Below, piece after piece: positions 49-31,722 of a DNA stretch of 64,000 nucleotides. The number at the start of each line of letters is the position of its first letter. Position 1 is the first letter of the stretch. Source of the stretch: an uncultured Acidimicrobiales bacterium. Lineage in GTDB: Bacteria > Actinomycetota > Acidimicrobiia > Acidimicrobiales > SHLQ01. Below the pieces are notes generated by a model. It saw nothing but the letters and a program-made list of their open reading frames with translations. It had not been told where the DNA came from and ran no database searches. The position numbers and the translations under genes were made by a program. The DNA lies in assembly GCA_938023735.1 (NCBI GenBank), contig CALJDK010000016.1, forward strand, positions 7,145 through 71,144. The letters are read 5' to 3'.

Positions 49-1209
49 TTAGCGCACGATCTGTTCGAGACGCTCATAAAGCGATCGGCCGGTTTCTGAC
101 GGCAAAAATGCCGTTTGGCACGCATCGGAAGCGGCATCGTGGAGCTTGTTGAGATGTTCGATGTCGTCGATTGTGGCCAAAATCTGTTCGGCTACGTCGA
201 CCGCTCGAGGTGCCGGCAGATAGTCGACATTGGGCTCGACGGGCACCCCGGCCATTGCCGAGGGGAGTCCGACAATGGGTACTCGATTGAATACGTAATC
301 AAGGATCTTCATCTTCAGGCCGCCGCCTTCGGGCTCAAACATTACCGCCATGCGAGAGTCACTGAGGTACTGCTGAAGATCGGGGACGAAGCCCGGAAAG
401 CTCACGGTGGGGAAGAGTTCGGCGGTTGGTTTGTTGATCTCGTCGTCGCCGCCCACGATGGCCAACTCGATGCCAGCATCGTGAAGTGGTTTGGCGGTGA
501 CCTCGAGAAGTTCGTGCATGTTGCGGCGCTTTACACCCCACACGAGGTTGTTCACGATGACGACCCGACGAGGCGTATCGGAGGTAATGGTGCGCTCTTG
601 CAACCTTTCGCCACGGTACGCCGGCGGCATCAACAGAAGTCGCTCGCGCTCGACATGGTTCTTCCGGTGATACGACTCGATGTCGGTCTCGGAGATGGCC
701 GTAACAAGAGCGGCCGAGTCGCACAGCTTTTGCTCGAACTGCCGCAGCTTTCGCAGATCGAGCGTAAAGGCGACCTTGTGATGGAACGATGGGTTGTTGT
801 CGAGCGTCGATTGCTTTACTGACGACTCGTGGTTGTGCGACATGTACACGATTGGTGCTACGGAGCGGAGCATGTCGATAGGTCCGCTCGATCGAAGATG
901 ATCGACGATGATCGCGTCGGGGTTGCTTCGCCTTACCAGTGGCCCCATGGCTTCCTGGGCCTCTTTGTTGTAGACCTCGCTGATCATGAACGGATACTTG
1001 GTGAGCTGACCACGGACCGTATGGCGAAACGCTGGGCCGAGAAGGGTCCAGTCGGGATCGTTTGGCCGCGCCACCTCGTCGCGCTCGTGGCCGATAAAGG
1101 AAATTTCAGCGCCGTGCTCGACGAGCGAACAGGCGACGCCTCGCGGATAGGTGAACAAGCCCATTGTTGCCGGCTCGAAATGGTGGCCGGCAAGCCAAAG
1201 AACTTTCAT
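49..1209 (-). CDS. Glycosyltransferase, GT1/GT4-like (GT-B fold)
   Basis: 386-aa ORF. The C-terminal half has the GT-B donor-binding pattern (FPGFVPDL..., EPEGGGLKMKILDYVFNRVPIVG). It lies in the glycan locus, divergent from the RTX gene. Confidence 0.65.
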   Translation of the reverse strand: MKVLWLAGHHFEPATMGLFTYPRGVACSLVEHGAEISFIGHERDEVARPNDPDWTLLGPAFRHTVRGQLTKYPFMISEVYNKEAQEAMGPLVRRSNPDAIIVDHLRSSGPIDMLRSVAPIVYMSHNHESSVKQSTLDNNPSFHHKVAFTLDLRKLRQFEQKLCDSAALVTAISETDIESYHRKNHVERERLLLMPPAYRGERLQERTITSDTPRRVVIVNNLVWGVKRRNMHELLEVTAKPLHDAGIELAIVGGDDEINKPTAELFPTVSFPGFVPDLQQYLSDSRMAVMFEPEGGGLKMKILDYVFNRVPIVGLPSAMAGVPVEPNVDYLPAPRAVDVAEQILATIDDIEHLNKLHDAASDACQTAFLPSETGRSLYERLEQIVR

Positions 1210-1408
1210 AGATTGACCTCACTGGGGGGAACGTGGGGAAGCGAGACGGGAAGCGGAACTAGGCCATCATACTAGGCCGGTAACGCGGGCCTTGGTGTCG
1301 ATATGGCCAATCTTGGGCGGTAGTGTGCATGACGCCAGAACACTGGATCTCCGCCGCAATGACGCCTATTATTGAAACACCGCGTTATTTACTGAAAGGT
1401 AATTAAAT

Positions 1409-2557
1409 ATGACTCCACGCTACGAACAACGTCCACATCGACTGGGCGAGTCGTTTGGGGTCTTCGTTGTGTTGGCTGCCACTTTGCTTCTCGCAGGATT
1501 GGTTGGGGGCGTCTCGACTGCCGAGGCAGCCGGAACAGCATGTCGAGGGGCCCAAGCCACAATCATTGGTACGTCCGGGAACGATCGACTCATCGGCACC
1601 GCAGGAAACGACGTCATCGTCGGCCTCGACGGCGACGATTTCATCAATGGCGGCGGCGGCAACGACATCATCTGCGGCGGTAGCGGTAAGGACCGCATCG
1701 CTGGTTCCACCGGAAACGACATCGTGAAAGGCGGCGGCGGCAACGACCGCATCTTTGGTGGCAGCGGAAACGACCAACTCTTTGGCGATGGCGGGAACGA
1801 CTTCATTATCGGCGACGCTGGAGCCGACAACATTCGCGGCTCGAAGGGTAACGACACGTTGGCCGGCGGCGCCGACAACGATCTGATCTTTGGCGACGGT
1901 GGCAGCGACCTCATCAACGGCGGTGGCGGAAACGACACCGTGGCCGGTGGCGGCGGAAACGACCGCATCAACGGCCAAAGCGGCGCCGACCGCCTTCTCG
2001 GCGGTGACGGCAACGACACCATCTTTGCCAGCGCTCCCGGCGCAGCACTCGGCCGGGTCGTTACCCGCGACCGCCTTGAAGGTGGCGCTGGTGCTGACTA
2101 TCTCGAAGGCGACTTCGGACCCGACGTGCTGCTTGGCGGTACCGGCAACGACGAACTCCACGATTTCAACGGTGCGAACCTGCTCGATGCCGGACCCGGC
2201 AACGACTTCATCGGAGGCGACGGCGTACTTCGTGGTCGGGCCGGAAACGACACGCTGTTCGGCGGGCCACAGAAAGATAAGTTGTTCGGCGATGAAGGGG
2301 TCGACTTCCTCATTGGTGGCCGCGCCAACGACGAGCTCAACGGCGGCGCCGGAAACCTCGATGTTTGCGCCGGAGGGCATTGGGCATCAATCGACGGAGG
2401 TGCCGACTTTGCGATCGCTGCTTCGCAACGGGGCGACAGCTTCGTCGGCTGCGACGATGTGCAGCGGCAGGAAACTCGAGCCAGCATCATTACCCCGTTC
2501 AAGCCCAACCAAGTAAACGGATTCTTGCTGCAAGACCTTGTGGGTCTGGGCGACTAA
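1409..2557 (+). CDS. Secreted calcium-binding protein with RTX-type (GGxGxD) nonapeptide repeats
   Basis: The N-terminus has a hydrophobic signal ending in AEA (VVLAATLLLAGLVGGVSTAEAAG). More than 20 consecutive repeats follow, of the type GGNDxIxGG / GNDxLxGG. An AT-rich leader sits upstream. Confidence 0.8.
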   Translation: MTPRYEQRPHRLGESFGVFVVLAATLLLAGLVGGVSTAEAAGTACRGAQATIIGTSGNDRLIGTAGNDVIVGLDGDDFINGGGGNDIICGGSGKDRIAGSTGNDIVKGGGGNDRIFGGSGNDQLFGDGGNDFIIGDAGADNIRGSKGNDTLAGGADNDLIFGDGGSDLINGGGGNDTVAGGGGNDRINGQSGADRLLGGDGNDTIFASAPGAALGRVVTRDRLEGGAGADYLEGDFGPDVLLGGTGNDELHDFNGANLLDAGPGNDFIGGDGVLRGRAGNDTLFGGPQKDKLFGDEGVDFLIGGRANDELNGGAGNLDVCAGGHWASIDGGADFAIAASQRGDSFVGCDDVQRQETRASIITPFKPNQVNGFLLQDLVGLGD

Positions 2558-2567
2558 CGCTAAGAAG

Positions 2568-3815
2568 CTACCCGTGCGGCCGGAAAGTATCGGTGGTCGC
2601 ACGGGTATACCACTCGTCGAGCGCCGACGCCGCCTCGTCGAGATGAAAGACCTCGCGTACCCGCTTGCGGCCGGCACGACTCATCGATGCTCGGCCTTCT
2701 GAATCGCGGGCTACCTCGATCATGGCTTCTGACAAACGATCGGACGCAACATCGCGGGGGCCAGGCTCGACCAACATCCCCGACTCGGAGCCGATCATCT
2801 GTTTTGCCGCGCCGGTATCGAAGCCAATGATGGGCAGGCCCATGGCCATGGCAAACACAAACAGCGTTGCGCCGCTGTCGCGCAGACTCGGAAACACAAA
2901 CACATGGCTTCGCGCGATGAGTGCCCGCTCGTCGTCGCGATGAAGCGATCCGTGGAGCGTTACCGAACGGCTGATGCCGAGTTGTGCAATGCGATCTTCG
3001 ATGGCCTCGCGCTCTGACCCTTCGCCGACCAGGTGAAAGTGAGCGTCGGGAAGATGCCTTAGGGCCTTGGCGAAGGCTTCGATGGCCAGGATGTGGCCTT
3101 TCCAGCCGATGAGGCGGCCAGAACTAACGAAAGATATTGGCGCGTCGAGGTCGGGGCCTTCGAGCGCTTCGAGCGCCTCGATCTGCTCGTCGTTGAGCGA
3201 GAAAGACGGGCGGTAGAGATGCACATAGGATGCACCGGCTTCGATCATGCGAGCGCGAGTTTGTTCGGTCCCCGCTACCCGAACCGCACGACGGGCCTTT
3301 GCCATGCGCTGCCAGTTGGTAGAGCGCATCGCCGACCACTGCAGGGCCTCGCGAGCGGCATTGCCCATGCGGCTCTTGGTGTTGAGCATGTGGCGGAAGG
3401 CGGGCGGGATGACTTCGCCGCCGGTAACCGGGCCAAAGACGTACGGCGGGCCGAGACGAACGATAGGGCTTGGCAGCCAGAATGCACCGAAGGACACGTG
3501 ATGCACAACGTCGAGCAGGTTCAGATCGTGGATCTTCTTTGCTTCGTCGTAGCCCTTGCTGAGCCAGCGCATCATGTGGACGGCGTCGCCCCAACTGGTC
3601 CCGGTGTGGAAGGGGCCGGAGTCCTCAGGGACATCGATATAGACCCAGTTGACTTTGTCCGAATCCGGATGCGCCTCGATGGCGAGCCGGTTGCTGGCTT
3701 TGGTCAAGGCCCAGACGGTGTGCTTCTTTGCAGCTATCTGGGTCCACTGCCACCCGAGGCCGGGTTCGGACCCGGCGTTCGGGATGCAGTCGTAGGCGAC
3801 GATGAGAACTTTCAC
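2568..3815 (-). CDS. Glycosyltransferase family 4 (GT-B)
   Basis: 415 aa. N-terminus is MKVLIVAYDCIPNAGSEPGLGW. The C-terminal half carries a typical GT4 block (HLVGEGSERE...VFVFPSLRDSGATLFVFAMAMGLPIIGFDTG...LVEP). Confidence 0.75.
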   Translation of the reverse strand: MKVLIVAYDCIPNAGSEPGLGWQWTQIAAKKHTVWALTKASNRLAIEAHPDSDKVNWVYIDVPEDSGPFHTGTSWGDAVHMMRWLSKGYDEAKKIHDLNLLDVVHHVSFGAFWLPSPIVRLGPPYVFGPVTGGEVIPPAFRHMLNTKSRMGNAAREALQWSAMRSTNWQRMAKARRAVRVAGTEQTRARMIEAGASYVHLYRPSFSLNDEQIEALEALEGPDLDAPISFVSSGRLIGWKGHILAIEAFAKALRHLPDAHFHLVGEGSEREAIEDRIAQLGISRSVTLHGSLHRDDERALIARSHVFVFPSLRDSGATLFVFAMAMGLPIIGFDTGAAKQMIGSESGMLVEPGPRDVASDRLSEAMIEVARDSEGRASMSRAGRKRVREVFHLDEAASALDEWYTRATTDTFRPHG

Positions 3816-3855
3816 TGCGCTCTAGCGTAACCAGGCCGACTCGGAAACGTCTCGG

Positions 3856-6156
3856 CTAGTTGTTTCGGCTCTTTGCAGCCGCTACTGCCGTGACTGCCAT
3901 GGCAAGCAAGGCCAGGCCAGCGACGATAAGCGGAAGCGGAAGCGAGCCGCCTTCGCTGATGGGTTGTTCGCCCAGGCTGAGCTCGGGAGCATCGGCCTGA
4001 ACGTCATCGCCACGCATTGCCGGGCCCTCGTCGACGAACGGAAGCTCGGTTGGTTCTTCGCCGATCCGGTCGGTGTCGATGGGTTCGGCATCTTCGTTGG
4101 CGGTGTCGGTCTGAGGATCTGGACGTTCGCCCAGGCTCTCGGCCGACTCGTCGGGACCGATATCGTCGAACAAGCCTTCGAGGCTAAAGCCGCTTTCGGG
4201 GGCCCGTCGCTCGATATGAGGCGTCCAACCTTCGGGAACGACCAGTTCGGGGACGGTGGTTGTCGTCGTAGTCGTGGTCGAGGTGGCGCCTGGGGTGGTG
4301 CTTGTTGTGGTCGACGGTGCCGCAGTTGTGGTTGGTGCTGCGGTGGTTACCGGCGCCTTGGTGGTTGGCACCACGATGATGAACGGTGCGGTAGTAGGCG
4401 CACTTGTAGTGGCTGGCGCCTGGGTGGTTGCTGGCGCCTTTGTTGTTGGTGCGTTAGTGGTGGCTGGCGCCTTGGTGGTAGCTGGTGCCTTGCTAGTAGC
4501 CGGCGCCTGAGTGGTTACCGGGGCTTTGGTGGTGGCAGGTGCTTTGGTTGTTGCGGGCGCCTGAGTCGTTACCGGGGCCTTGGTGGTAGCAGGTGCCTTG
4601 GTGGTGGCCGGGGCTTTGGTTGTTGCGGGCGCCTGAGTGGTAGCAGGAGCCTTGGTGGTGGCAGGTGCCTGGGTGGTTGCCGGCGCTTTGGTGGTGGCAG
4701 GTGCCTGGGTGGTGGCAGGTGCCTGGGTGGTTGCCGGTGCCTGGGTCACAGCCGGCGCCTTTGTGGTTGTGGGGGCCTGCGTGGTGGCTGGGGCCGCACC
4801 GGCGAACTCGAAGGCGCCGATGTCAGACTTTGCGCCGGCTGGGCGGTTCACGCCACCGAACGAGCTGTTCACCAGGTCCAGACCCTGATCGATGGCGGGC
4901 GACCAGCCCTGAAGCGAGAAGTCGGCCTTGCTGGGGTCGGTCGTAGGGTTGGTAAGACCGGGGTTGCTATCGACCCGGCGGTCATCGGGGTCGACATTTC
5001 CGCCCACGACGATGTTGTTGTAGCTCTCGAGGTTTGATCCGTTCTTCAGCACGATGCCGTCGGTGCCGTTGTGTGGCCACGCAATGTTGTTTGCTACCCG
5101 AACGTCGCGGGCATCAAAGGCATCGATTTCGGCGCGGGTACCCGTGAGCTTCGGGGTCCACGAGTTGTGCATGGTGGTGTTGTTGTACACATCGACATGG
5201 CTCGACATGAACACATGGATTCCCTTACCGCCGTTGTTGAACACCACGTTGTTGGCGATGAGGGTACGCAGGGTGTATCCGGTCAGGTTGTTCTGGTCGA
5301 GGATGATGCCGTTTCCGTCGGTGATGTCGTTGGGGAAACCGATTCCGGCACCGTTCACTTTGTTCTCGTTGGCGTACACGACGTTGCCGACGATGTAGTC
5401 GGAGTAGCCGTTGGCATCGTCGCCGAAGCCGTGATGCTGCGGACGCCAGATCGAAATGCCCGAGCCCTGGTTGTCGTTCCAGTACGAGTTCTCGTAGATC
5501 TCGTTGTACATGATGCGAGCATGGCTGATCTTCTGCGATCCGTATCCGCCTACCGGGAAACCGTGGATCTTGTTGTTGGAAACTAGAATGTGGTGGCCAG
5601 TGTTGGCGACAACGCCGTATCCGTAGCTATGGCCGGCGTGAAAGCCCCGTCCTTCAAGCTCGAAGCCCGAGACCTCGACATAGGACGAGTGATAGAGCTC
5701 GATGGCGCTGGTGTTGGTGGCAACGATCTTGGGGGAGTGCCCGGGCATGGCCTTGATACGGATCCACGCATCGGCGGTGCCGTTCTTGTTCGCGACCACG
5801 ATGTGGGCCTGACCGTTGTTGTTGTCGCCGGTGTAGGTGCCGTTCATCACAAACACCGTGTCGCCGGCCTGAAGACGGCTGACCGCCGTGGTGATGTAGC
5901 GAAGTGGGGCGTCCTGCGACGTTCCGCTGTTTCCGTCGTTGCCGAACTCGGCGCTGACGTAATAGGTGGTGCCCTGGGTTGCACCAAGCACGTCGGTGCG
6001 ATCATCGTCGCCCGATGGCTGCTGGGAGTCGACGGTGGGGGGCTCGTTGGTCGAGCACGCAGCGCCGAAGAGAGCAAGCGTAAGGAACAGAACGGCGAGT
6101 CGAATGAAGCCGTTGGTATGACGAGTTGAGGTGATCTGGGGGGCAGTCATGCCCAA
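3856..6156 (-). CDS. Right-handed parallel beta-helix lipoprotein with a long Pro/Thr/Ala linker, an acidic region and a C-terminal TM anchor; putative glycan-active enzyme
   Basis: Lipobox LFGAAC near the N-terminus. Beta-helix repeat signatures are present (NNKIHG, NEIYEN, ITDGNGIILDQN, ANNVVFNNGGKGIHV, VYNNTT). About 180 aa of APATT(Q/K) repeats follow. The C-terminus is LPLPLIVAGLALLAMAVTAVAAAKSRNN. Confidence 0.75.
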   Translation of the reverse strand: MGMTAPQITSTRHTNGFIRLAVLFLTLALFGAACSTNEPPTVDSQQPSGDDDRTDVLGATQGTTYYVSAEFGNDGNSGTSQDAPLRYITTAVSRLQAGDTVFVMNGTYTGDNNNGQAHIVVANKNGTADAWIRIKAMPGHSPKIVATNTSAIELYHSSYVEVSGFELEGRGFHAGHSYGYGVVANTGHHILVSNNKIHGFPVGGYGSQKISHARIMYNEIYENSYWNDNQGSGISIWRPQHHGFGDDANGYSDYIVGNVVYANENKVNGAGIGFPNDITDGNGIILDQNNLTGYTLRTLIANNVVFNNGGKGIHVFMSSHVDVYNNTTMHNSWTPKLTGTRAEIDAFDARDVRVANNIAWPHNGTDGIVLKNGSNLESYNNIVVGGNVDPDDRRVDSNPGLTNPTTDPSKADFSLQGWSPAIDQGLDLVNSSFGGVNRPAGAKSDIGAFEFAGAAPATTQAPTTTKAPAVTQAPATTQAPATTQAPATTKAPATTQAPATTKAPATTQAPATTKAPATTKAPATTKAPVTTQAPATTKAPATTKAPVTTQAPATSKAPATTKAPATTNAPTTKAPATTQAPATTSAPTTAPFIIVVPTTKAPVTTAAPTTTAAPSTTTSTTPGATSTTTTTTTTVPELVVPEGWTPHIERRAPESGFSLEGLFDDIGPDESAESLGERPDPQTDTANEDAEPIDTDRIGEEPTELPFVDEGPAMRGDDVQADAPELSLGEQPISEGGSLPLPLIVAGLALLAMAVTAVAAAKSRNN
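4250..4800 (-). repeat. In-frame 18-nt tandem repeat tract encoding (APATTQ/APATTK)n plus a poly-Thr run
   Basis: Repeated ggtggttgc/ggtggtggc-aggtgcctg units are directly visible. They translate to APATTQAPATTKAPATT... within the 766-aa ORF. Confidence 0.85.
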
Positions 6157-6280
6157 GAAATCGACGAATAAAAACCAGACCTTTACCAGATTTCGAGTGA
6201 TGTTCGCCTAGCGGGTCAATCGGACCACGACGGGAGACCTACGACCCGAAGTCCACATTGCACCTCGAAAAATGCCGGGT

Positions 6281-7723
6281 CTATTCGTCGGGCTGTTGCT
6301 TCTCGGCCACCGTCGATGGGGGTGAGGCTTCGACCGAACCTTCGCCCGTGCTGGCCTCATAGGCACCCGCATCGGGGAGCGGGCCGCGAGCGCGACCCTC
6401 GATGTCGTCGGGGTGCAGAAGCGTGGCTGCATCGATAGCCGGCGAAGAGATTCGAAGCCGGAAATCGGCCGCTGCCGGGTCGATCGAGGGGTTCACGAGG
6501 CCCGAAGTGCTCACCAGGATGTCGTTACCGCTGGTGCCGTCCTCGTCGCCAACGATGACGTTGGACTGGCGAGCCTGATCGTCGCCCCGTGTGGCGATGG
6601 CCTTGTTGCCTTCGGCCGGCACGATGAGGTTGTTGGCGATACGTATGTTGCGGGTATCGAACGTAGCGATTTCGGCATTCTCGCCTTCGAGTCCGGGCGT
6701 GAAGAGGTTCTGATAGGTGGTGTTGTGGAAGACGTCGACGTTGATCGACTGAAACACATTGATGGCCCGGCCACCGTTGTTGAAGGCAATGTTGTTGGCG
6801 ATAAGGGTGCGGCCCGAGTACTCGACCATGTCGCCCTCCTCGTTCATGGTGTTCTGATCGATGATGATGCCGTTGCCGTCGGTAATGATGTCCTCGCCGC
6901 AGAACCCACAGAAGACCCGGTTTTCGTTGCCGTACAGCGTGTTGCCAACGATGTAGTTGCTGTATCCGGCCGCATCATCGTCGAAGCCATGATCCTCGAG
7001 ACGCCAATAGGAAATACCCGAACCCTGGTTCGAGTCCCACAGCGCATTGCCGTGCACCACGTTGTTCAGCACATACAGGTGTGAGCTACCACGGGTGCCG
7101 AACCCACCGGTGGGGAACCCGTGGATCTCGTTGTCGGCCACAACAATGTGGTGCGACTGGGCCACAACAACGCCGTAGCCATAAGAGTTCTCGGCGGAGA
7201 AACCAACGCCTCGCATTTCGAATCCTTGAAGCTCGATGTAGTCGGCGGTGATCTCGAACGCACTGGTCACGTCGGCTTCGATAACCGGCCGGTGGCCAGG
7301 CATTGCCCGGTACCGGATCCAGTTGCTTTCCGTGCCCGGAACCTCAAGAACAAAATGCGCGGCCCCGCGCTCTTCCAGGCCATCGACTTCGTTGTAGATG
7401 CCGTCCATGATCCAAAAAACGTCGCCCGCCTTCTGCCTGTCGACCGCCTGCCCGATGGTCTGCCACGCCGACTCTGGCGACTTGCCATCATTATCGTCGC
7501 TGCCCTGTGGGCTGATGAAGAAATGGTTCGGAGCTGCCGGGTCGGGTTCGATATCGGGAAGACGCACGGCCTCGCCGGTTCCGGCGGGCACACCTCCGCC
7601 AGTGATCGCGAAGGAGTCGACGGGTAGCGGATCGATGCCACTGACACCGTCGCCACAAGCGGCGGCCATCAGGGACAGAAGCGTCAAGAGCGCGACAAAA
7701 AGAAAAGGACGGGGGGATCGCAT
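6281..7723 (-). CDS. Right-handed parallel beta-helix lipoprotein, paralog of 3856..6156 without the PT linker or anchor
   Basis: Lipobox LMAAAC. The catalytic-domain blocks are collinear with the neighbouring gene (WIRYRAMPGHRP, SYGYGVVV, HGFPTGG, NQGSGISYWR, ITDGNGIIIDQN, IANNIAFNNGGRAINVF, DPAAADFRL..SPAIDA). Confidence 0.75.
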   Translation of the reverse strand: MRSPRPFLFVALLTLLSLMAAACGDGVSGIDPLPVDSFAITGGGVPAGTGEAVRLPDIEPDPAAPNHFFISPQGSDDNDGKSPESAWQTIGQAVDRQKAGDVFWIMDGIYNEVDGLEERGAAHFVLEVPGTESNWIRYRAMPGHRPVIEADVTSAFEITADYIELQGFEMRGVGFSAENSYGYGVVVAQSHHIVVADNEIHGFPTGGFGTRGSSHLYVLNNVVHGNALWDSNQGSGISYWRLEDHGFDDDAAGYSNYIVGNTLYGNENRVFCGFCGEDIITDGNGIIIDQNTMNEEGDMVEYSGRTLIANNIAFNNGGRAINVFQSINVDVFHNTTYQNLFTPGLEGENAEIATFDTRNIRIANNLIVPAEGNKAIATRGDDQARQSNVIVGDEDGTSGNDILVSTSGLVNPSIDPAAADFRLRISSPAIDAATLLHPDDIEGRARGPLPDAGAYEASTGEGSVEASPPSTVAEKQQPDE

Positions 7724-7725
7724 AC

Positions 7726-9039: not shown

Positions 9040-9053
9040 AGGTGCCTGTCGGA

Positions 9054-14328: not shown

Positions 14329-14488
14329 GGTGTTAGAGCTCCGAAAGAATGAATGTAGGTGCGACAAGACGCACGGTTTCAGCATACTTCAGTGTCGGTC
14401 AAGTAAAAATAGGCCATTTGGCGCACTGAAGAACGTTTTTGCAATCGAGCTTGATGGGCAGCCGACCGCCTCAATCCGCTAGCCGAAA

Positions 14489-18318: not shown

Positions 18319-18333
18319 GAGAGAACCCGTTTC

Positions 18334-23531: not shown

Positions 23532-23543
23532 AGCCGAACAGCT

Positions 23544-24446: not shown

Positions 24447-24458
24447 GCCGCGGGATCG

Positions 24459-25475: not shown

Positions 25476-25540
25476 TTTCGAATAGAATGAAAGGCACTGA
25501 GCGCCGAAGCGCTTTGTTGCGAACTACGAGGATTTTCGGA

Positions 25541-27415
25541 ATGCAATACAGGCCCGATATTGACGGCCTGCGGGCGCTAGCAATTGTGCCCGTGCTGCTC
25601 TACCACCTTGATGTTGACTCGGTTGCTGGCGGGTTCGTAGGCGTCGACGTGTTCTTTGTCATTTCCGGGTTCCTCATTACGTCGATCATTGCGAAGAACC
25701 TAGACACAGGGAATTTTACGTTCGCCGACTTCTATCGCAGGCGTGCGTTGCGAATCCTTCCTCCACTGTTCTTTCTACTCGCGGTGACGATGGTTGCGTC
25801 CTACCTACTGCTGTTGCCGTTCGAGGCGCATGAAATCGGCAAAACCGCGATTTCGGCAACGGTCTTCTACTCGAATATCGACCTCTGGCGATCGGCCGAT
25901 TACTTCAACCCCATCTCCGATACCAACCCGCTGCTCCACACGTGGTCACTCGGAATCGAGGAGCAGTTCTACATTCTGGTGCCGTTCCTGTTAGTGGCGC
26001 TTCACCTTAAATTCTGGAAACGACGGGTTGGAGTGTTTGCACTTTGTGTTGCGGGCTCGTTTCTCTTGAGCGTGATCGTGATAGCGCGCGAGCCAACCGG
26101 CACCTTCTACCTGCTTCCAACACGGTTTTGGGAAATGGCGGTGGGGTCAGTACTCGCACTGCTTGGAGTGCGAGCACAAGTTACCGGTCGCGCCGCCGAA
26201 GTGCTGTCAACGTTGGGCGTTTTGGGTATCGCTGGAGCAATCTTCCTGCTCGACGGCGGCTCCGTTTTTCCAGGGTACAACGCGCTTGCTCCGGTTCTCG
26301 GCACGGCGGCGCTTCTCGCCAGTGGTCAAACCTCATGGGTGGGCCGCCTGCTGTCCGCGAGGTTGCCAGTGGCAATCGGCAAGATCTCCTACTCGCTCTA
26401 CCTTTGGCATTGGCCGCTCATCGTCTTTTACAAACTCGAAACTGGGCCAGAGTTGAGGCTCGCCGAAATCGGCGGCCTCATTGCGGCTTCCTTTGCGTGC
26501 GCCATTGTCAGCTTTGCTCTGGTCGAGACACCATTTCGACGAATTTCTTATGCAGTATCGACTCCTCGGGTTTTGATGGGGGCGGCGGGATCGATGGCGA
26601 CTGTCGTCGTCGGCGCGCTCTTTCTTCAATGGGCAGCCGAGGAACGCCGCGACTTGCCGAACGAAGTCGTTGCCATGTCTGACTTCAACGATTACGAAGA
26701 AACCGAGCGATACCGAGAGCAGTTTCGCACCGACGAGTGTTTTCTTACATCCCGAACCGTTGGCGCGTTTTCGGCCTTCAATGCAGACTTCTGTCTTGCA
26801 GAAGACAATCAGACGCTACTCCTTGGCGATAGCCACGGAGCACACCTCGCCGGGCCTCTCGAAAAGGCGCTGCGCGAAAGCGACAACGAGATTGTAAGCG
26901 TCGGCCAGGCGACAGCGTCTGGCTGCAAGCCTCTCCGGAATGCGACAGGGGAGGCTCGCTGCACCGACCTGATGTCGTTCATATACGAAGACTGGCTTCC
27001 GTCGTCAGCGCCTCCCCGGGTGATCTTGGCCGGGAGATGGCAGGAGGCAGACATCGAGCCGCTCCGAACCTCGATCGACTACCTAAAGATCCATGGAGTA
27101 CGTGAGGTCGTCGTTCTGGGCCCGACCGTTGAATACTTCGGATCGGTTCCTTCACTTCTCGCTCGGGACGTTCTCGCCGGGACCGACTCTCTGGAGGCAT
27201 TTCAGGATAAAGCACGCTCGGAACTCGATGGCGAGATGCTGCGGAGACTGGAAACCGACGAGATTCAGTATGTCTCGGTACACCAACTCGTATGTCCCGC
27301 CGAGGGCTGCTTGTTAACCGTTGAAGATACGCCCTTTCAGTTCGACTACGGACATTTCACCGATGCTGGTGCGCACGTTGTGGCAGCCGGAATTGCGGCA
27401 CAGATTGAAAAATGA
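25541..27415 (+). CDS. O-acyltransferase, AT3 membrane domain fused to an SGNH-like domain (OafA/OatA type)
   Basis: The start is refined to MQYRPDIDGLRALAIVPVLLYH (AT3 signature). Also present: FFVISGFLIT and HTWSLGIEEQFY. The C-terminal soluble domain has LLLGDSHGAHL. The track ORF begins at 25487. Confidence 0.8.
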   Translation: MQYRPDIDGLRALAIVPVLLYHLDVDSVAGGFVGVDVFFVISGFLITSIIAKNLDTGNFTFADFYRRRALRILPPLFFLLAVTMVASYLLLLPFEAHEIGKTAISATVFYSNIDLWRSADYFNPISDTNPLLHTWSLGIEEQFYILVPFLLVALHLKFWKRRVGVFALCVAGSFLLSVIVIAREPTGTFYLLPTRFWEMAVGSVLALLGVRAQVTGRAAEVLSTLGVLGIAGAIFLLDGGSVFPGYNALAPVLGTAALLASGQTSWVGRLLSARLPVAIGKISYSLYLWHWPLIVFYKLETGPELRLAEIGGLIAASFACAIVSFALVETPFRRISYAVSTPRVLMGAAGSMATVVVGALFLQWAAEERRDLPNEVVAMSDFNDYEETERYREQFRTDECFLTSRTVGAFSAFNADFCLAEDNQTLLLGDSHGAHLAGPLEKALRESDNEIVSVGQATASGCKPLRNATGEARCTDLMSFIYEDWLPSSAPPRVILAGRWQEADIEPLRTSIDYLKIHGVREVVVLGPTVEYFGSVPSLLARDVLAGTDSLEAFQDKARSELDGEMLRRLETDEIQYVSVHQLVCPAEGCLLTVEDTPFQFDYGHFTDAGAHVVAAGIAAQIEK

Positions 27416-27470
27416 ACCGTCAGGAGCGGGCGACAATAGTAACGATCGTGCAACTGGCGCCTGGAGGCAA

Positions 27471-28604
27471 TTGACGAACGCTCACCGCGTAGTTTTTGTG
27501 CTCGCAGTTGCGTTGCTGTTGGTGCTGGCTTTCCTCGTGCTGGGAACAGGAGGCCAACCGTCGGGGCCTGATACCGGCGATCTGGAGGTCACCCTGCCCT
27601 CTAGTACAACGAGTCAAAAACCCCCGACTACGACGACCACCACCTCGACCACCACGACCACAGTGTTCGGCGGACCATTTGGCCAGCAGTTGCTGGACGC
27701 CCCGATCGTCGGTTTGCCGGAAACAGGCTTCGGGCAAACCGAGGACGATATTACTGCCGTTCTCGATGTCCAGTTTCCGGGACTGAGAGACTACGCCTCG
27801 AACCATGAGGACCTCGAGATCGTGACCAGCGACGAGCCTGCATATCTCCGGTATCGCTCAGACGTCGGTAACAACTCGCGCACGCAGTTCCAGGTTCCGA
27901 TCGAAGACCAGACCGAGTCCTATCTAGTGTATCGCTTCATGCTGGAACCGGGATTCGATGCGGGCGATGGCGACGGCTCGGACGGTTCGCCGTCTTGGGG
28001 GACCGGCGTGAAGTTGCCCGGTCTCATGCGGGGCGATGCGGCGGATAACACTGGCGGTAACCATACCGCCGGCGGGTTTTCCGGCCGGCTGATGATTCGT
28101 GGAACTCGCAAGTCGGATGGGCGATCGGGTCTGCCTCGCGAGGGAATCACCCTCTCGTCCTACATCTATGCGCAGTCGATAGATGGCCTAGACGTAGCAT
28201 CGGGATTCGGGCGAGATTACTACTTTCTGAACGGGTTCTCTCAGCAGCCATTCGAAGGCATCCGAAGTGGCCTGTCGGAAGGCGTGGGAGATGAGCGGAT
28301 TTGGGACCTACCCGTTGGGAAATGGATCACCGTGGTTCTCGGCTACCGAGTCGACGGCGAGAACGGTTGGTTTAAGGCATGGACCGCCGTCGACGGCGTA
28401 GACCGTTCGCCCGCCGAGCGACTCTTCGTACCATCGATCGACTGGTCGGGTGGCACCGATGGCGCGGACTCGCTGCTGTTTCAAGTCTTTTGGGGCGGTT
28501 CGGGGCCGGTATGGTACCCCGACTCACTTTCCTACGTGCGATTCAAAGACTTCGGTGTCTTCACCGATGAACGCGATGCGCTGCATGCGGCTAGGACGGG
28601 CTAA
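27471..28604 (+). CDS. PL14-like putative polysaccharide lyase, paralog of 21993..23531
   Basis: Same architecture as the paralog: TM anchor VVFVLAVALLLVLAFLVL, a poly-Thr linker, then a collinear domain (YLRYRSDVGNNSRTQFQVPI, VKLPGLMRGD..GGNHTAGGFSGRLMIRG, FWGGSGPVWYPD..YVRFKDFGVF). The track ORF starts at 27321 and overlaps the acyltransferase by 95 nt. The in-frame TTG at 27471 after GGAGG is my guess, so the start is uncertain. Confidence 0.5.
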   Translation: MTNAHRVVFVLAVALLLVLAFLVLGTGGQPSGPDTGDLEVTLPSSTTSQKPPTTTTTTSTTTTTVFGGPFGQQLLDAPIVGLPETGFGQTEDDITAVLDVQFPGLRDYASNHEDLEIVTSDEPAYLRYRSDVGNNSRTQFQVPIEDQTESYLVYRFMLEPGFDAGDGDGSDGSPSWGTGVKLPGLMRGDAADNTGGNHTAGGFSGRLMIRGTRKSDGRSGLPREGITLSSYIYAQSIDGLDVASGFGRDYYFLNGFSQQPFEGIRSGLSEGVGDERIWDLPVGKWITVVLGYRVDGENGWFKAWTAVDGVDRSPAERLFVPSIDWSGGTDGADSLLFQVFWGGSGPVWYPDSLSYVRFKDFGVFTDERDALHAARTG

Positions 28605-28771
28605 AAGGAAAGAATCCGGACGAAGTCGCCGCCCGTTTACTTGGAAAGAATACGTCCAGACGGCCCTGTTGCCGGGCGCCTAGCGCAGTGTACGATTGGA
28701 GACAATGGAATCTCCAGCGTCGGACCATCTCGGCCCCGTACTGGTCGGTGGACAGAGGTGCAACCGTGGTG

Positions 28772-30415
28772 ATGTATAGCGGATCGTTCGAGACGGTCGA
28801 GACCCCGGGTCTTCAAGATTATCTCAAGGCTGTCCAGGCGAGAAAGCTTCTCGTCATCCTGTTCTTGCTCGCTGGGCTTGGGCTCGCGTACCTCTTTACA
28901 ACCAATCGAACAGCCACGTATTCGGCCAGCACCCGCGTCCTCGTCAACCCAAGTCCGGCACGATCAGGCACCACCGGCAACTCGAGGCCCAACCTCGAGA
29001 CCGAACGCGAGATTCTGACATCGGAACCTATTGCCCGGGTTGTTGCCCAAGAAGTACCCGATGCGCCTTCGCCACGAGACATTCTCGCCGGACTTGATGT
29101 GAGCTTCCGGACGGGCAGCGAGGTCTTGTCCCTCACGTATACCTACAACGACCCAACTGTCACGGCCGAAGTTGTTAACGGCTTCGCTCGGACCTACACC
29201 CAAGATCGAATCGATGCGACGGCGGAGGTCTACACGGCGGAACGAGCGGCACTTGCGTCGTCAGCCGACGGAATCGGCGAACAGATCTCCGCTGTCGATG
29301 CTGCATTGGTCGATGTCAACGATTCGCTGGGCGAACTCACACCAGAGGACACCGTTGGTGCCGACGTGCTTCGCGCCGAACGCACGACGCTCTCCAGTCA
29401 GCGCAACCAACTCACGGCCGACTTGATTACGGTTCAGAAATCTCTCCGCGCGCTCACACAAACTGAAGACGGCGCTAGCTTGGCGGCCGAGGTTCTGCAA
29501 CTTGCCGACCCGCCGTCCGCCCCAGAGGGATTTCCCGACCGGCTCCTCTGGATCGTCGGCGGCATGCTCGGTGTCACCTTAGGAGTAATTGCGGCGTTTG
29601 TCGCAGACCGACTCGATACAACGGCGCGTGAGGAATCTGACGTCGAGCTAGCGCTCGGTAGTTCGGTGCTCGGCTCGGTGCCGCCATTCGGAAGATTTGG
29701 CGGAGCGAGCGACGGGCTCGTGATGCTAAGCGACAACACCAGCACCCGAACGCAGAGGGCACAAGAGTCGTTCCGACGTCTCCGAACCTCAATTCAGTTC
29801 GTAGGAAATTCTGACGGAATCCGCAGCTTATTGTTGACGAGTTCGCAGCCAGCCGAAGGAAAGTCCACAGTCTCGGCGAACCTTGCCGTTGCGCTTGCTC
29901 AGGCAGGCCAGACCGTCGTGCTTGTCTCAGCAGACATGCGTCGACCGACCCTCGAGACTATTTTCGGCATTCGCAACGTGACGGGTTTGAGCGATCATCT
30001 TCAGTCTGACTCCCAGAGTTACCCGCCCGTAATCAGCATCGGAGTCGAGAACCTCGCGATCCTGCCCAGCGGCCCGCCGCCACCAAACCCTGGAGAGCTT
30101 TTAGGGCTGCCGCGCTTCAAACAACTCATCGTTCAGCTTGAGGCCACGTATGACTTCGTCATCGTTGATACCCCGCCAGCGTTGTCCGCGGCCGATTCTG
30201 CAGCGGCTGCAATCAGCGTTGGTGGTGTACTTGTGGTTGTCGACTCGAAACGAACCGATACCGAGGCCCTCTTGCGGGTCCGTTCCGACCTTGAACGCTC
30301 AGGGGCTCGGGTAATCGGAGCACTGCTCAACAAGGATCGTTCTCGTTCCACGAAGTTCTGGTCGCGTCGCGATCGCTACGCGTACGAACGAGCAGCTGCC
30401 ACCGCCCGAAAGTGA
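28772..30415 (+). CDS. Polysaccharide co-polymerase (Wzz) fused to a BY-type tyrosine autokinase (copy B)
   Basis: It starts at MYSGSFETVETPGLQDYLKAVQARKLL, parallel to copy A (ETPGLEDYLKAIQARKLL). Motifs: Walker A SSQPAEGKS, VLVSADMRRP, VIVDTPPA, tail RRDRYAYER. Confidence 0.85.
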   Translation: MYSGSFETVETPGLQDYLKAVQARKLLVILFLLAGLGLAYLFTTNRTATYSASTRVLVNPSPARSGTTGNSRPNLETEREILTSEPIARVVAQEVPDAPSPRDILAGLDVSFRTGSEVLSLTYTYNDPTVTAEVVNGFARTYTQDRIDATAEVYTAERAALASSADGIGEQISAVDAALVDVNDSLGELTPEDTVGADVLRAERTTLSSQRNQLTADLITVQKSLRALTQTEDGASLAAEVLQLADPPSAPEGFPDRLLWIVGGMLGVTLGVIAAFVADRLDTTAREESDVELALGSSVLGSVPPFGRFGGASDGLVMLSDNTSTRTQRAQESFRRLRTSIQFVGNSDGIRSLLLTSSQPAEGKSTVSANLAVALAQAGQTVVLVSADMRRPTLETIFGIRNVTGLSDHLQSDSQSYPPVISIGVENLAILPSGPPPPNPGELLGLPRFKQLIVQLEATYDFVIVDTPPALSAADSAAAAISVGGVLVVVDSKRTDTEALLRVRSDLERSGARVIGALLNKDRSRSTKFWSRRDRYAYERAAATARK

Positions 30416-31722
30416 GCCTGAACGTCGCCGTCACCGCGACAGGGCCCAAACAAAGGGCCCAAGCACCGTCGACAATCGAACGTGCTGTATGCGTATCGAT
30501 GCTGTTCCTGTTGTCATTCAATACGCCCAACCGCTGGTTCCTCTCGCGGCGGGAAAGCCTTGACATAGCGATAGAGGCAGCCGCAGATCCGTTCGCTGTG
30601 ATACTGGTCTTGGGGCTTACCGGATTTTTCGCACACAAGCTCGCTGGAAACTGGCAGCCGATGTACTGGGTCGCCATGCAGGATCGACTCTTTCTTGCCT
30701 TCTTTGGGCTTGTCGGGCTGTCGACGCTGTGGTCGGTCGAACCCGTCGCAACGATTCGCGAGACTATTGTGACGCTCTTCGTAGTGTTCTTTGGCCTGTA
30801 CTTGGTTGTGCGTTTTTCTCTGCGGGATGTCCTATTTCTTTCCGGTGTTGCCTTTGGCATCGGTGTCATTGTCGATCTGTTCTTCGTGTTTGCTCTTCCT
30901 GACTATGGCGACACGTTCGCTGGATGGAGCGGAACACAGATCAACAAGAACAGCCTGGGGAGACTTCATGTCCTCACCGCGATCGTCTTTCTTGTTGGCG
31001 CACGTACCTTTCGCCGGTTCCGTGTTATCAACTACTTCCTGGCAGGGCTCTCGGTAGCTCTTGTAATCGGATCGACGTCGTCAACGTCGCTTGTTTCGCT
31101 GTTGCTAGCGCTAACGACCACGGTTGTTGCGCAGATCTTCCGAGCGAGAAAATCGTTGTTCCCGGCTGTTGTGCTGAGCACGATGTTGTCAGCGGTAACC
31201 GCCGTTGGTTTCGCTACCGCGAATCTGGGTGTGCTGACCGAACTGTTCGGCAAAGACGTGACATTCACCGGCCGCACACCGCTTTGGGACTTCACGATTG
31301 CCGAGTCGATGGAAAGGCCTTGGACTGGTTTTGGTTGGAACGCGTTCTGGAACGGCTTCGGGTCGCCTGCTCACGAGGTCTGGGTCGAATTCGCTTGGAC
31401 GCCGCCTCACGCGCATAACGCGTTCATCGATTACGCGCTCCAAGTAGGTTGGCCAGGAGTCATCTTGTTCATGATAATGATTCTGCGAGCGAGTTCGAGA
31501 AGCATTGCCTATGTCCGCGATACACCAGGCCCAACAGGGTTACTCCCTCTCGCCATCATCGTGTTCTCGCTGTTGTTCTCTCTGACCGAATCTGGGGTCG
31601 TCGGCCGAAATGGCTTCTTCCTTCTGGTCACGGTGTCTGTGTATTCCGTGGCGGTCGCGCGGGCTAGGCGGCAAACGGAGATGCGAACCGGCCCGTCATT
31701 GTCGATAAGCGAGAGCATCTAA
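30412..31722 (+). CDS. O-antigen ligase/polymerase-like (Wzy-type) membrane protein (copy B)
   Basis: 436-aa polytopic protein. Its GTG start overlaps the kinase stop (GTGA), the same junction as in copy A. Shared blocks with copy A include TGFGWNAFWNGFGSPAHEVW versus TGFGWEAFWGGWFSPSHEIW. Confidence 0.6.
   Translation: MSLNVAVTATGPKQRAQAPSTIERAVCVSMLFLLSFNTPNRWFLSRRESLDIAIEAAADPFAVILVLGLTGFFAHKLAGNWQPMYWVAMQDRLFLAFFGLVGLSTLWSVEPVATIRETIVTLFVVFFGLYLVVRFSLRDVLFLSGVAFGIGVIVDLFFVFALPDYGDTFAGWSGTQINKNSLGRLHVLTAIVFLVGARTFRRFRVINYFLAGLSVALVIGSTSSTSLVSLLLALTTTVVAQIFRARKSLFPAVVLSTMLSAVTAVGFATANLGVLTELFGKDVTFTGRTPLWDFTIAESMERPWTGFGWNAFWNGFGSPAHEVWVEFAWTPPHAHNAFIDYALQVGWPGVILFMIMILRASSRSIAYVRDTPGPTGLLPLAIIVFSLLFSLTESGVVGRNGFFLLVTVSVYSVAVARARRQTEMRTGPSLSISESI

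Follow-up and report, generated by a model that had tools for sequence, protein, structure and literature searches.

The 64,000-nucleotide stretch of DNA analysed here (the window), from an Acidimicrobiales (Actinomycetota) genome, carries beside the aceE gene a region of about 32 kb that is best read as two adjoining Wzx/Wzy-dependent glycan-assembly clusters, probably serving two different polymers. Cluster A spans positions ~49 to 13038, perhaps up to 15394, and comprises the following genes:

49..1209, minus: GT4_a, GT4 glycosyltransferase (Pfam Glyco_trans_1_4 and Glyco_transf_4)
1409..2557, plus: RTX calcium-binding repeat protein (Pfam HemolysinCabind, E 2.8e-56)
2568..3815, minus: GT4_b, GT4 glycosyltransferase (Pfam Glycos_transf_1, E 1e-25)
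3856..6156, minus: surface-anchored right-handed beta-helix protein, 766 aa (Pfam Beta_helix)
6281..7723, minus: secreted beta-helix protein, 480 aa, PL9/pectate-lyase-like (Pfam Beta_helix and NosD)
7726..9039, minus: Wzx1, flippase of the MOP family (Pfam Polysacc_synt and MatE)
9054..10016, minus: GT2_1, glycosyltransferase (Pfam Glycos_transf_2)
10013..11353, minus: Wzy1, multi-pass Wzy_C membrane protein, putative polymerase (Pfam Wzy_C, 49.4 bits against a cut-off of 31.7)
11350..13035 (ORF to 13038), minus: Wzc1, fused chain-length determinant and predicted BY-kinase, 561 aa (Pfam Wzz and P-loop)
13240..14385, minus: NAD-dependent sugar epimerase/dehydratase, membership tentative (Pfam Epimerase, E 2.6e-37)
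14489..15394, plus: WecG/TagA/CpsF-family glycosyltransferase, linkage-unit type, membership tentative (Pfam Glyco_tran_WecG, E 2.7e-51)

Cluster B runs from ~15403 to 31722 and is followed by aceE:

15403..17547, minus: GT2+GT4 fusion glycosyltransferase, 714 aa (Pfam GT2, N-terminal, and GT4, C-terminal)
17569..18318, minus: sugar-1-phosphate nucleotidyltransferase (Pfam NTP_transferase)
18334..19602, minus: S-methyl-5-thioribose-kinase-family (MtnK) sugar kinase (NCBIfam TIGR01767, E 3.9e-133, 444 bits against a cut-off of 275)
19599..20426, minus: inositol-monophosphatase-family phosphatase (Pfam Inositol_P, E 6e-58)
20624..21892, plus: Wzx2, flippase (Pfam Polysacc_synt)
21993..23531, plus: membrane-anchored PL14-like lyase paralogue, 512 aa (weak Pfam PL14 match)
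23544..24446, minus: GT2_2, glycosyltransferase (Pfam Glycos_transf_2)
24459..25475, minus: methyltransferase (Pfam Methyltransf_24, E 7e-21)
25487..27415, plus: AT3-SGNH O-acyltransferase (Pfam Acyl_transf_3 and SGNH)
27321..28604, plus: membrane-anchored polysaccharide lyase-like protein of predicted PL14 fold, 427 aa (Pfam PL14, 32.6 bits)
28772..30415 (ORF from 28688), plus: Wzc2, fused chain-length determinant and predicted BY-kinase, 547 aa from the ATG at 28772 (Pfam Wzz and P-loop)
30412..31722, plus: Wzy2, Wzy_C membrane protein, putative polymerase (Pfam Wzy_C, 57.6 bits)
31741..34479, minus: aceE, pyruvate dehydrogenase E1 (Pfam PDH_E1_M, E 6e-91)

The open reading frames lie where a preliminary description of this DNA had placed them, and its two Wzx, two Wzy-like, two Wzz-kinase and two GT2 genes are all eight backed by Pfam. 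At 18.3-19.6 kb the real gene is the 422-aa MtnK-family frame, a longer overlapping ORF having been rejected. Profile searches of the window found neither an initiating phosphoglycosyl transferase nor a phosphotyrosine phosphatase, which leaves both pathways incomplete as far as the window shows them.

Cluster A recurs gene by gene in the relatives, as Wzc1-Wzy1-GT2-Wzx1, a pair of PL9-like beta-helix proteins, GT4, RTX protein and GT4, and its proteins are conserved at 62-88%. Orthologues of GT4_a (81%) and of the RTX protein (64%) occupy matching positions in L001 and L010, and those of GT4_b (81-87%) occur in L001, L010 and L005, as do orthologues of the 766-aa beta-helix protein. The latter consists of a signal/anchor, the beta-helix, a Thr/Pro/Ala-rich linker (APATTK-type) and a C-terminal transmembrane segment (TM segments 16-34 and 743-761). 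The 480-aa protein has an N-terminal signal segment and matches NCBIfam PelN under the cut-off (E 1.3e-15), its orthologues in relatives carrying Pel9A-like_beta_helix; the two beta-helix proteins are 43% identical, a paralogue pair missed in the preliminary description. The RTX gene lies antisense to its neighbours and encodes a single N-terminal hydrophobic segment (residues 17-35). Wzx1 orthologues are 71-78% identical, and those of GT2_1 (62-73%) directly follow Wzy1 in all relatives. The epimerase and WecG-family genes are tentatively assigned to cluster A: the epimerase has 64-81% homologues beside WecG in beta-helix-type loci elsewhere and is absent beside Wzc1 in the closest relatives, and the WecG-family gene (NCBIfam TIGR00696, over cut-off) occurs together with the epimerase in such beta-helix/WecG-type (type II) loci.

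The only constants of cluster B among relatives are Wzc2 and Wzy2; the genes for glycosyltransferases and modification have been reshuffled, as in a serotype-determining locus, and the interior is different in each relative compared. The GT2+GT4 fusion has full-length homologues (52-53%) beside Wzx2-like flippases in the AceE-linked loci L022, L023, L026 and L034. The phosphatase is the first gene of a conserved phosphatase-MtnK-nucleotidyltransferase cassette, which probably supplies an unusual NDP-sugar; the kinase has a 61% homologue in L021 with the same neighbours on both sides, and the nucleotidyltransferase, 72% identical in L021 and 64-74% in eight metagenome contigs, always directly follows an MtnK homologue. 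Homologues of the methyltransferase (52-53%) adjoin the GT2_2 orthologue in L021 and L020. The acyltransferase starts at window position 25541 in an independent assembly, and the database version of the 27321..28604 protein starts at 27363 (413 aa). The AlphaFold model of this protein (pLDDT 70.9 overall, >85 in the core) finds its best Foldseek matches in the PL14 alginate lyase 5gmt (E 2.4e-15, TM 0.73) and Aly36B, which points to a PL14 fold. It is 60% identical to the 512-aa protein, which has an N-terminal transmembrane segment and a Ser/Thr/Pro linker, and the two form a second pair missed before. The lyase-like proteins have extracytoplasmic topology.

Both Wzc proteins are fusions resembling CapA-CapB and exceed the NCBIfam TIGR01007 cut-off of 108 bits (147.7 for Wzc1, 164 for Wzc2, to which P0017 is identical); Wzc1 has two transmembrane segments, and its closest solved relative is the CapA/CapB chimera in the PDB (E 1.8e-42). 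The Walker blocks said to be common to both kinases are present in each, as Walker A and Walker B together with ExxRxxR, and the BY-kinase motifs are conserved in both copies; Walker A', however, is without the first Asp (S/N-x-D), which makes kinase activity only putative. Both proteins end in SRRDRYAYER, as described earlier, and the reported 4-nt overlap of kinase stop and Wzy start is seen as ATGA at 11350-11353 and GTGA at 30412-30415. The two-tyrosine tail had been called atypical for BY-kinases; the tail is real but is the family norm, with exactly two tail tyrosines in 77 of 107 members and YxY in 99. Since the overlap and the tail are found across the whole Acidimicrobiales family, where Wzy lies directly downstream of the kinase gene in 55 of 71 loci, they are uninformative about this locus in particular. 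The Wzy_C domain occurs also in ligases and O-oligosaccharyltransferases, and the polymerase role of Wzy1 and Wzy2 is thus only putative. Wzy2 is fast-evolving, as its orthologues are just 45-63% identical; those of Wzy1 are 70-81% identical.

The preliminary description took the assembly and export genes to be diverged duplicates, and offered either two polymers or a retained, duplicated module as the reading. Duplication in place of the whole module (Wzc, Wzy, Wzx and GT2 together) within a single cluster, followed by divergence, accords with the significant homology of all four pairs in BLASTP (Wzc 48.7% identity over 559 aa, E 3e-153; Wzy 38.4% over 406 aa, E 2e-73; Wzx 33.0% over 400 aa, E 7e-54; GT2 32.6% over 239 aa, E 9e-21), with the overlap and tail shared by both Wzc-Wzy junctions, family-wide though these are, and with neighbour-joining trees, the method used throughout, that place Wzc1, Wzc2 and an AceE-linked outgroup in one subclade (100% bootstrap). 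Wzc1 and Wzc2 are sisters at 64%, and the pair looks like an old lineage-specific duplicate that arose within the AceE-linked lineage. The idea of duplication stands for Wzc only. Wzx1 and Wzx2 are sisters in 0 of 200 bootstraps, Wzx2 grouping in 179 of 200 with flippases of distant AceE-linked loci; Wzy1 and Wzy2 are likewise sisters in 0 of 200, although the Wzy sequences diverge too far to settle this firmly; and GT2_2 is 55-58% identical to its orthologues in L064, L020, L021 and L025 versus 33% to GT2_1. Whole-module duplication is therefore quite unlikely, being largely refuted for Wzx and GT2, and the Wzy, Wzx and GT2 counterparts appear to have been recruited from different lineages. 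It is also unlikely that cluster A was acquired whole from a type II locus by horizontal transfer, landing beside a resident AceE-linked cluster without any duplication. Type II loci (e.g. L041, L048, L054, L058, L079) do hold the nearest non-orthologous relatives of Wzx1, of the beta-helix proteins and of the GT2_1-like gene, as well as those of the epimerase and WecG, but Wzc1 groups with Wzc2 and the AceE-linked outgroup rather than with type II kinases, Wzy1 is closest to L099 (60%) and to the outgroup loci L014, L015 and L017, and GC is even along the locus at ~0.58-0.62.

That one set is redundant or decaying, with a single polymer made, is very unlikely. Wzc2 and Wzy2 do evolve faster than Wzc1 and Wzy1, and the cluster B of one relative is minimal and lacks a flippase, which makes some sharing of components between the clusters possible; but every ORF is intact, none of the catalytic motifs and neither of the tail tyrosines varies within the Wzc1 and Wzc2 clades, and at least five genomes have kept both copies from a time preceding synonymous-site saturation. 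Both sets are under purifying selection, with pN far below pS and dN/dS of 0.06-0.16 (Wzc1 0.06-0.08, Wzy1 0.09, Wzc2 0.10-0.12, Wzy2 0.13-0.16). No gene conversion between the paralogues was found: between-paralogue identity is equal within and between genomes, and tail codons differ synonymously. The mirrored layout described earlier holds here for the Wzc-Wzy pairs, which are oppositely oriented, but in four other related genomes or assemblies with both copies the order is AceE→Wzc2→Wzy2→variable→Wzc1→Wzy1→GT2→Wzx→BH→BH→GT4 on one strand. The mirror orientation is, on this gene order, a later, derived inversion of the Wzc2-Wzy2 pair in this genome only and not a design feature. An assembly artefact (such as a chimeric join or mis-oriented segment) is barely credible as the source of the side-by-side, mirrored arrangement. 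The sequence is a metagenome-assembled contig, the only one to support the Wzy2/aceE junction, which was sought and not found in a second assembly; against this, the clusters are adjacent in the four other assemblies, no repeats flank the inverted segment, and an independent assembly at 99.2-99.7% identity reproduces 8860-16035 and 24901-28804, including the junction from PL14 to the Wzc2 start, which is specific to the inverted arrangement. Other parts of the mirror image do not survive: GT2_2 lies on the minus strand like GT2_1, and the halves do not simply face away from a neutral central block at 13.2-20.4 kb, since its part at 15.4-20.4 kb runs in the same direction as the left half. Nor is that block one for shared precursors, the genes at 15.4-25.5 kb travelling with cluster B in the distant genome L021, where the phosphatase, MtnK, nucleotidyltransferase, methyltransferase, GT4 and GT2_2 lie within a single AceE-linked cluster.

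Of the two readings first offered, that of two polymers, extracellular or of the cell wall, is the better one and, from the gene content of clusters A and B, the most likely: the two halves are each equipped with a flippase lineage, polymerase, co-polymerase/kinase, glycosyltransferases and secreted lyase-like family of their own, and both are under purifying selection. If the clusters work like their characterised homologues, Wzx/Wzy systems and CapAB/Wzc, repeat units would be assembled on a polyprenyl carrier after priming by a phosphoglycosyl transferase whose gene lies beyond the window; the cognate Wzx would then flip each unit and the cognate Wzy polymerise it. Each Wzy would be translationally coupled to its own Wzc, whose ring assembly and YxY-tail phosphorylation may gate polymerisation, and the lyase-like proteins may trim or release the polymer. 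The locus is an ordinary, if tidy, case of an already known kind; aceE is the immediate upstream neighbour of Wzc in 19 of 78 loci of the family and in every close relative, and its flank is a conserved insertion hot spot for these clusters.

The interval 49-31722 holds an unbroken series of glycan-biosynthesis genes, catalogued from an ORF listing combined with Pfam and NCBIfam scans, and probably represents two Wzx/Wzy-dependent clusters that lie next to each other and make two polymers. Cluster A lies to the left (about 49-13038, perhaps to 15394) and cluster B to the right (about 15403-31722), each with its own fused chain-length/kinase protein (Wzc), putative polymerase (Wzy), flippase (Wzx) and GT2 gene. 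All genes named in the preliminary description were recovered in the window, in which GC content is uniform at about 0.58-0.64 and no tRNA genes were found. The features on which the comparison relies are the following.

7726-9039, minus strand: Wzx1 (Pfam Polysacc_synt)
9054-10016, minus strand: GT2_1
10013-11353, minus strand: Wzy1 (Pfam Wzy_C)
11350-13038, minus strand: Wzc1 (Pfam Wzz plus P-loop kinase)
17569-20426, minus strand: conserved trio of IMPase-family phosphatase, MtnK-family kinase and sugar-1-phosphate nucleotidyltransferase, in that order
20624-21892, plus strand: Wzx2 (Pfam Polysacc_synt)
23544-24446, minus strand: GT2_2
28688/28772-30415, plus strand: Wzc2 (Pfam Wzz plus P-loop kinase)
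30412-31722, plus strand: Wzy2 (Pfam Wzy_C)
31741-34479, minus strand: aceE, right boundary of the glycan run

Two open reading frames without a Pfam family are probably spurious: a 325-aa frame at 1403-2380 (minus), antisense to an RTX gene at 1409-2557 (plus) that has a strong Pfam match (E 2.8e-56), and a 466-aa frame at 18248-19648 (minus), which overlaps the real 422-aa frame of the MtnK-family kinase.

The two gene sets had been described as diverged paralogues, read either as two distinct polymers built from shared precursors or as a duplicated module that has diverged. All-against-all BLASTP aligned each of the four proposed pairs and added two pairs, one in each cluster, that the earlier list did not contain.

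Paralogue pairs within the locus
Wzc1/Wzc2: 48.7% identity over 559 aa
Wzy1/Wzy2: 38.4% identity over 406 aa
Wzx1/Wzx2: 33.0% identity over 400 aa
GT2_1/GT2_2: 32.6% identity over 239 aa
beta-helix proteins 6281-7723 and 3856-6156 (cluster A, newly listed): 43%, E 2e-104
PL14-like proteins 27321-28604 and 21993-23531 (cluster B, newly listed): 60%, E 3e-136

Neighbour-joining trees with bootstraps, built from ORFs called in 86 fetched loci, separate these pairs by history. The Wzc tree consists of three big clades, two from AceE-linked loci (X and Y) and one from beta-helix/WecG-type loci (Z), with clade X holding Wzc1, Wzc2 and the single-copy outgroups L014, L016 and L017. The grouping of Wzc1, Wzc2 and outgroup has 100% bootstrap support, within which Wzc1 and Wzc2 are sisters at 64%, against 36% for the alternative of Wzc1 with the outgroup. 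Since the topologies inside the Wzc1 and Wzc2 clades match each other, and identity between the two proteins is equal within and between genomes, the Wzc duplication appears to be old and to have proceeded without gene conversion. The remaining pairs do not behave as duplicates of one another. Wzy1 and Wzy2 are sisters in 0/200 replicates, Wzy2 grouping weakly with locus L079 and clade Y; Wzx1 and Wzx2 are likewise sisters in 0/200, with Wzx2 joining the clade-Y flippases in 179/200 and Wzx1 joining those of L054/L079 in 132/200; and GT2_2 has orthologues at 55-58% identity in L064, L020, L021 and L025, as against 33% to GT2_1. Of the proposed duplication, only the Wzc pair thus remains tenable, placed in one subclade at 100% and as sisters at 64%, while for the other three of the four pairs the members are not each other's closest homologues. 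Read from these comparisons, the history of the locus is probably that of one anciently duplicated Wzc, the other parts having been recruited independently. The Wzc1-Wzy1 unit is older than the clade of the window, because the more distant contig L099 carries a Wzc1-like (50-55%) and Wzy1-like (60%) pair, situated behind a very different Wzc and ahead of a Bac_transf priming transferase. On that contig (1304-6520) two consecutive Wzc genes overlap by 4 nt; the one in front is only 28-31% identical to Wzc1/Wzc2 and ends in the tail YGYGYG; adjacent Wzc copies also occur in L046 and L074. In both gene sets dN/dS is 0.06-0.16, with pN far below pS and dS saturated.

The mirrored arrangement of the two sets, in which the preliminary description saw halves facing away from a central block, is not general. 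Within the window itself GT2_2 lies on the minus strand and is therefore unmirrored. Database searches with Wzc1 matched solely MAG proteins of Acidimicrobiales/Acidimicrobiia, and the orthologues of Wzc1 (68-88% identity) and Wzc2 (60-75%) form two clean groups that co-occur on the same contigs. Every relative with both copies has the order aceE (plus), Wzc2, Wzy2, a variable block, Wzc1, Wzy1, GT2, Wzx, two beta-helix genes, GT4, RTX (minus) and GT4; the closest relative, CAZGVQ01/L007, agrees within the reach of its short contigs. The sole departure of the window from this order is that Wzc2-Wzy2 is flipped, with Wzy2 converging on aceE. Because relatives (CALLQB01, CALHTF01 and the L008/L012 genome) carry both Wzc-Wzy pairs on one strand, the mirror layout is a derived inversion of two genes, recent and local. 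The junction between the PL14-like gene and the start of Wzc2 is reproduced by a second assembly at 99.2% identity (via protein P0121). For the Wzy2/aceE junction, exact-protein look-ups (P0017, AceE and the AT3 protein) gave no match in a second assembly, nor did a 41-nt pattern in JGI metagenomes. The ends of the inverted segment show only chance-sized inverted-repeat matches. When the sequence ahead of Wzc2 was aligned to the relatives' aceE-Wzc2 spacers, in case the promoter had moved along with the gene pair, no usable similarity emerged beyond the start-codon region.

The genes between the two Wzc-Wzy pairs can largely be assigned to cluster B. The 4.9-Mb Acidimicrobiia contig L021, with a Wzc at only 43% identity, has a single AceE-linked cluster that reads Wzc, Wzy, IMPase (72%), MtnK (61%) and NTP-transferase (72%), followed further on by methyltransferase (52%), GT4 (50%) and GT2_2 (55%), and the 714-aa GT2+GT4 fusion protein of the window has full-length homologues beside Wzx2-like flippases in L022, L023, L026 and L034. 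This synteny and the position of the fusion homologues place 15403-25475 with cluster B. The epimerase and WecG genes (13240-15394) co-occur elsewhere with beta-helix-type loci, at 64-81% and 48-57% identity, respectively; their cluster assignment is tentative, as they are not beside Wzc1 in the nearest relatives.

At the core of the trio, 18334-19602 encodes a full-length MtnK-family kinase (TIGR01767, 444 bits). The order of the three genes is kept in L021, and eight metagenome contigs have the nucleotidyltransferase immediately behind the kinase, with the phosphatase ahead of the kinase in all four that extend upstream. A specific tie of the trio to glycan loci was considered and rejected, since the copies in L092 and L094, near-identical sequences that may come from one genome, sit among unrelated metabolic genes; this context points to a portable cassette that is no marker of glycan loci. 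The trio may constitute a route, so far undescribed, by which a 5-methylthio- or 5-deoxy-pentose is NDP-activated for incorporation into polymer B. Methylthioxylose addition in mycobacteria takes a different route (PMC11127046).

Across relatives the proteins of cluster A are 62-88% identical with gene order kept, whereas the interior of cluster B is unlike in each. In CALLQB01 it contains two PL14-like genes, several glycosyltransferases, a Wzx and a set of GT2-GtrA, GtrA, large membrane protein and FAD-oxidoreductase genes; in CALHTF01 it is reduced to a 336-aa protein and two glycosyltransferases, with no flippase; and in L008 it holds another gene set again. This pattern is one of a conserved polymer beside a serotype-like variable polymer. 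The part of the variable block of the CALLQB01 relative at L001 4828-9744, which includes a GT2-GtrA fusion, a 547-aa protein without a Pfam family, a GtrA-like protein and the FAD oxidoreductase, is reminiscent of three-component pentofuranose side-chain systems (PMC11127046). The window forms part of ENA contig ERZ6864144:c_000000835432 (186 kb), and the same assembly, ERZ6864144, also yields a relative's contig with a Wzc1 at 70% and a minimal cluster B; since these two loci (L005 and L087) share an assembly, related populations with differing cluster B coexist in one sample. Homologues of the cluster B methyltransferase, GT2_2 and PL14-like proteins at 53-59% are found in L020 (JBLIMK010000057.1), which is labelled Verrucomicrobiales. 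Its aceE-Wzc-Wzy synteny, however, is that of Acidimicrobiales, and the contig has probably been mis-binned.

Both flippases exceed the PF01943 cut-off of 28.2 bits (Wzx1 54.7, Wzx2 38.8), and both Wzy proteins are multi-pass membrane proteins above the cut-off for PF04932 (Wzy_C). The Wzy_C domain is also found in ligases and O-oligosaccharyltransferases; the locus holds no polymerase candidate besides Wzy1 and Wzy2. The locus encodes a second-step enzyme of the WecG/TagA type, and no priming phosphoglycosyl transferase of the Bac_transf or WecA/MraY type was found among the gene-sized ORFs of the 64-kb window. A six-frame motif scan likewise found no LMW-PTP or CX5R phosphatase. An LCP (LytR-CpsA-Psr) ligase encoded at 49889-51109 (minus) is a candidate for wall attachment of the polymers. 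It is flanked by two M23 peptidase genes (48906-49892 and 51175-52350) and a DivIVA-domain gene (52542-53282). Within the two clusters, the predicted transcription units are AT3-PL14-Wzc2-Wzy2 and a second one that runs from the epimerase through Wzc1 to GT4_b.

Wzc1 and Wzc2 score as BY-kinases (TIGR01007, 147.7 and 164.0 bits against a cut-off of 108.05; NCBIfam), with Pfam Wzz (PF02706) above cut-off in both and two transmembrane segments by hydropathy, as expected for two-pass proteins (about 27-45 and 275-293 in Wzc1, 46-64 and 287-305 in the long ORF of Wzc2). The closest solved sequences are 4jlv, 3bfv and 2ved (E about 1e-42) and Wzc 7nhr (2e-25), and the match to the S. aureus CapA/CapB chimera extends over the juxtamembrane activator segment of CapA. 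In alignment A1 of the Wzc proteins, Walker A (G377-K378-S379), Walker B (D480-x-x-P483) and the ExxRxxR residues E346, R349 and R352 are invariant; among 107 family members GKS occurs in 104, DxPP in all and ExxRxxR in 105. Walker A' reads S-A-D-M-R-R-P with D402 and the Arg-Arg-Pro invariant, and departs from DxDxR at the position of the first Asp (S400 in Wzc1): among the 105 of 107 members in which the motif was found, 63 have Ser and 42 have Asn there, and none has Asp. The tail has two tyrosines only, Y550 and Y552, both invariant; family-wide there are two in 77 members, three in 26 and four in one, with YxY in 99. The preliminary description was right that both proteins end in the same tail (SRRDRYAYER) and that both Wzc-Wzy junctions have 4-nt stop/start overlaps (ATGA and GTGA). 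Of 71 loci, 55 have Wzy immediately after Wzc, 20 with a 4-nt overlap. The short tail, the S/N-x-D motif and the overlap are lineage traits and no sign of local duplication.

With S. aureus CapA/CapB and E. coli Wzc, the two proteins have in common a membrane domain of two passes and, behind it, a juxtamembrane activator segment bearing the conserved Phe; the GKS of Walker A, the DxxP of Walker B, the ExxRxxR ring-interface motif and a tyrosine tail at the C terminus are shared as well (PMC2422856). In contrast to the S. aureus pair (Cap5A1-Cap5B2), the CapA-like and CapB-like parts are naturally fused in one protein, and the catalytic DxD of CapB, D77/D79 (PMC2422856), is replaced by S/N-x-D. 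Unlike both CapA/CapB and E. coli Wzc, the tail usually has two tyrosines as YxY rather than four or more, there is neither a Wza partner nor a phosphatase gene nearby, and wzc is translationally coupled to a Wzy_C gene. The Acidimicrobiales Wzc may form a distinct BY-kinase subclass, marked by the S/N-x-D Walker A', a two-Tyr YxY switch and translational fusion to Wzy. The tails of the co-resident Wzc1 and Wzc2 are identical despite 49% overall identity, which suggests that the two may cross-phosphorylate or form mixed rings; if so, one phosphorylation circuit would set the balance of conserved versus variable polymer. That the Wzc subclass, such cross-talk and the MtnK cassette as an undescribed NDP-pentose route should all hold together is improbable.

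A separate pair of lyase-like proteins, extracytoplasmic in both cases, belongs to each cluster, which argues for two different polymers. Signal or anchor segments occur in all four. Because PDB sequence searches with the PL14-like and beta-helix proteins were uninformative, a predicted structure was used for the 427-aa protein (27321-28604), modelled from 22 homologues with core pLDDT >85. The structures it matches best are alginate/glucuronan lyases of families PL14 and PL36 (Foldseek: 5gmt, E 2.4e-15, target TM 0.73; 3gne (vAL-1), 2.9e-10) and Pfam PF21294 scores 32.6 bits against a cut-off of 27, so that the modelled protein is assigned the PL14 beta-jelly-roll fold. This protein and its 512-aa paralogue are each anchored in the membrane at the N terminus and carry a Ser/Thr/Pro linker. 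The beta-helix proteins of cluster A are similar to pectate lyases of family PL9 (their counterparts in relatives are Pel9A-like; PelN match at E 1e-15). The 3856-6156 (minus) product has a long Thr/Pro/Ala-rich linker of 'APATTK/Q' repeats at about residues 460-620, which caused a spurious Pfam 'Cementoin' match, then an acidic region and a C-terminal transmembrane anchor; it looks like a surface-tethered beta-helix enzyme. The two polymers probably contain uronic acid, and polymer B is predicted to bear O-methyl and O-acyl groups.

The locus resembles documented kinds, since adjacent cps clusters, paired Wzy and BY-kinase duplications are already known. Lactiplantibacillus plantarum WCFS1 carries several adjacent Wzx/Wzy-type clusters, cps1-cps2-cps3, in a 49-kb region (PMC3539956), and is likewise a Gram-positive chromosome in which each cluster has its own chain-length/kinase, flippase and polymerase and in which cps content is strongly strain-variable. 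Its clusters, however, are separated by transposases and have split kinases (CpsC/CpsD type), whereas here no mobile-element genes were seen at the locus, one cluster is conserved and the other variable, and the kinase pair probably goes back to an old duplication specific to the lineage. In Agrobacterium tumefaciens, two Wzy each specify one of two unipolar polysaccharides (UPP-GlcN or UPP-GalN), with two Wzx and partly common machinery (bioRxiv 10.1101/2021.04.22.440995). The likeness lies in the two Wzy and two Wzx; in that diderm with a Wza secretin, the genes are spread over six loci, the flippases are not polymer-specific and no BY-kinase is duplicated. More than one BY-kinase copy was present in 27.5% of the BY-kinase-bearing genomes surveyed, the paralogues arising via duplication and transfer, for example in Burkholderia (PMC4007543); in contrast to the Burkholderia expansions, the paralogues here share one locus at a distance of about 16 kb, and a start/stop overlap ties each of them to its own Wzy. 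Taken as a whole, the preliminary description was largely accurate in what it observed and partly so in its interpretation.

Seen at a single locus, the short Tyr tail, the start/stop overlap and the mirror symmetry stand out, and they are not to be over-read. Two points could be of specialist interest if put to the test: that the first Asp of DxD has been lost across the family, and the conserved MtnK-containing cassette. For Acidimicrobiales, an actinobacterial order that is mostly uncultured, the analysis provides a comparative view of how surface-glycan genes are organised, comprising a fixed hot spot beside aceE, a conserved and a serotype-like cluster, and the Wzc-Wzy unit as the constant core.
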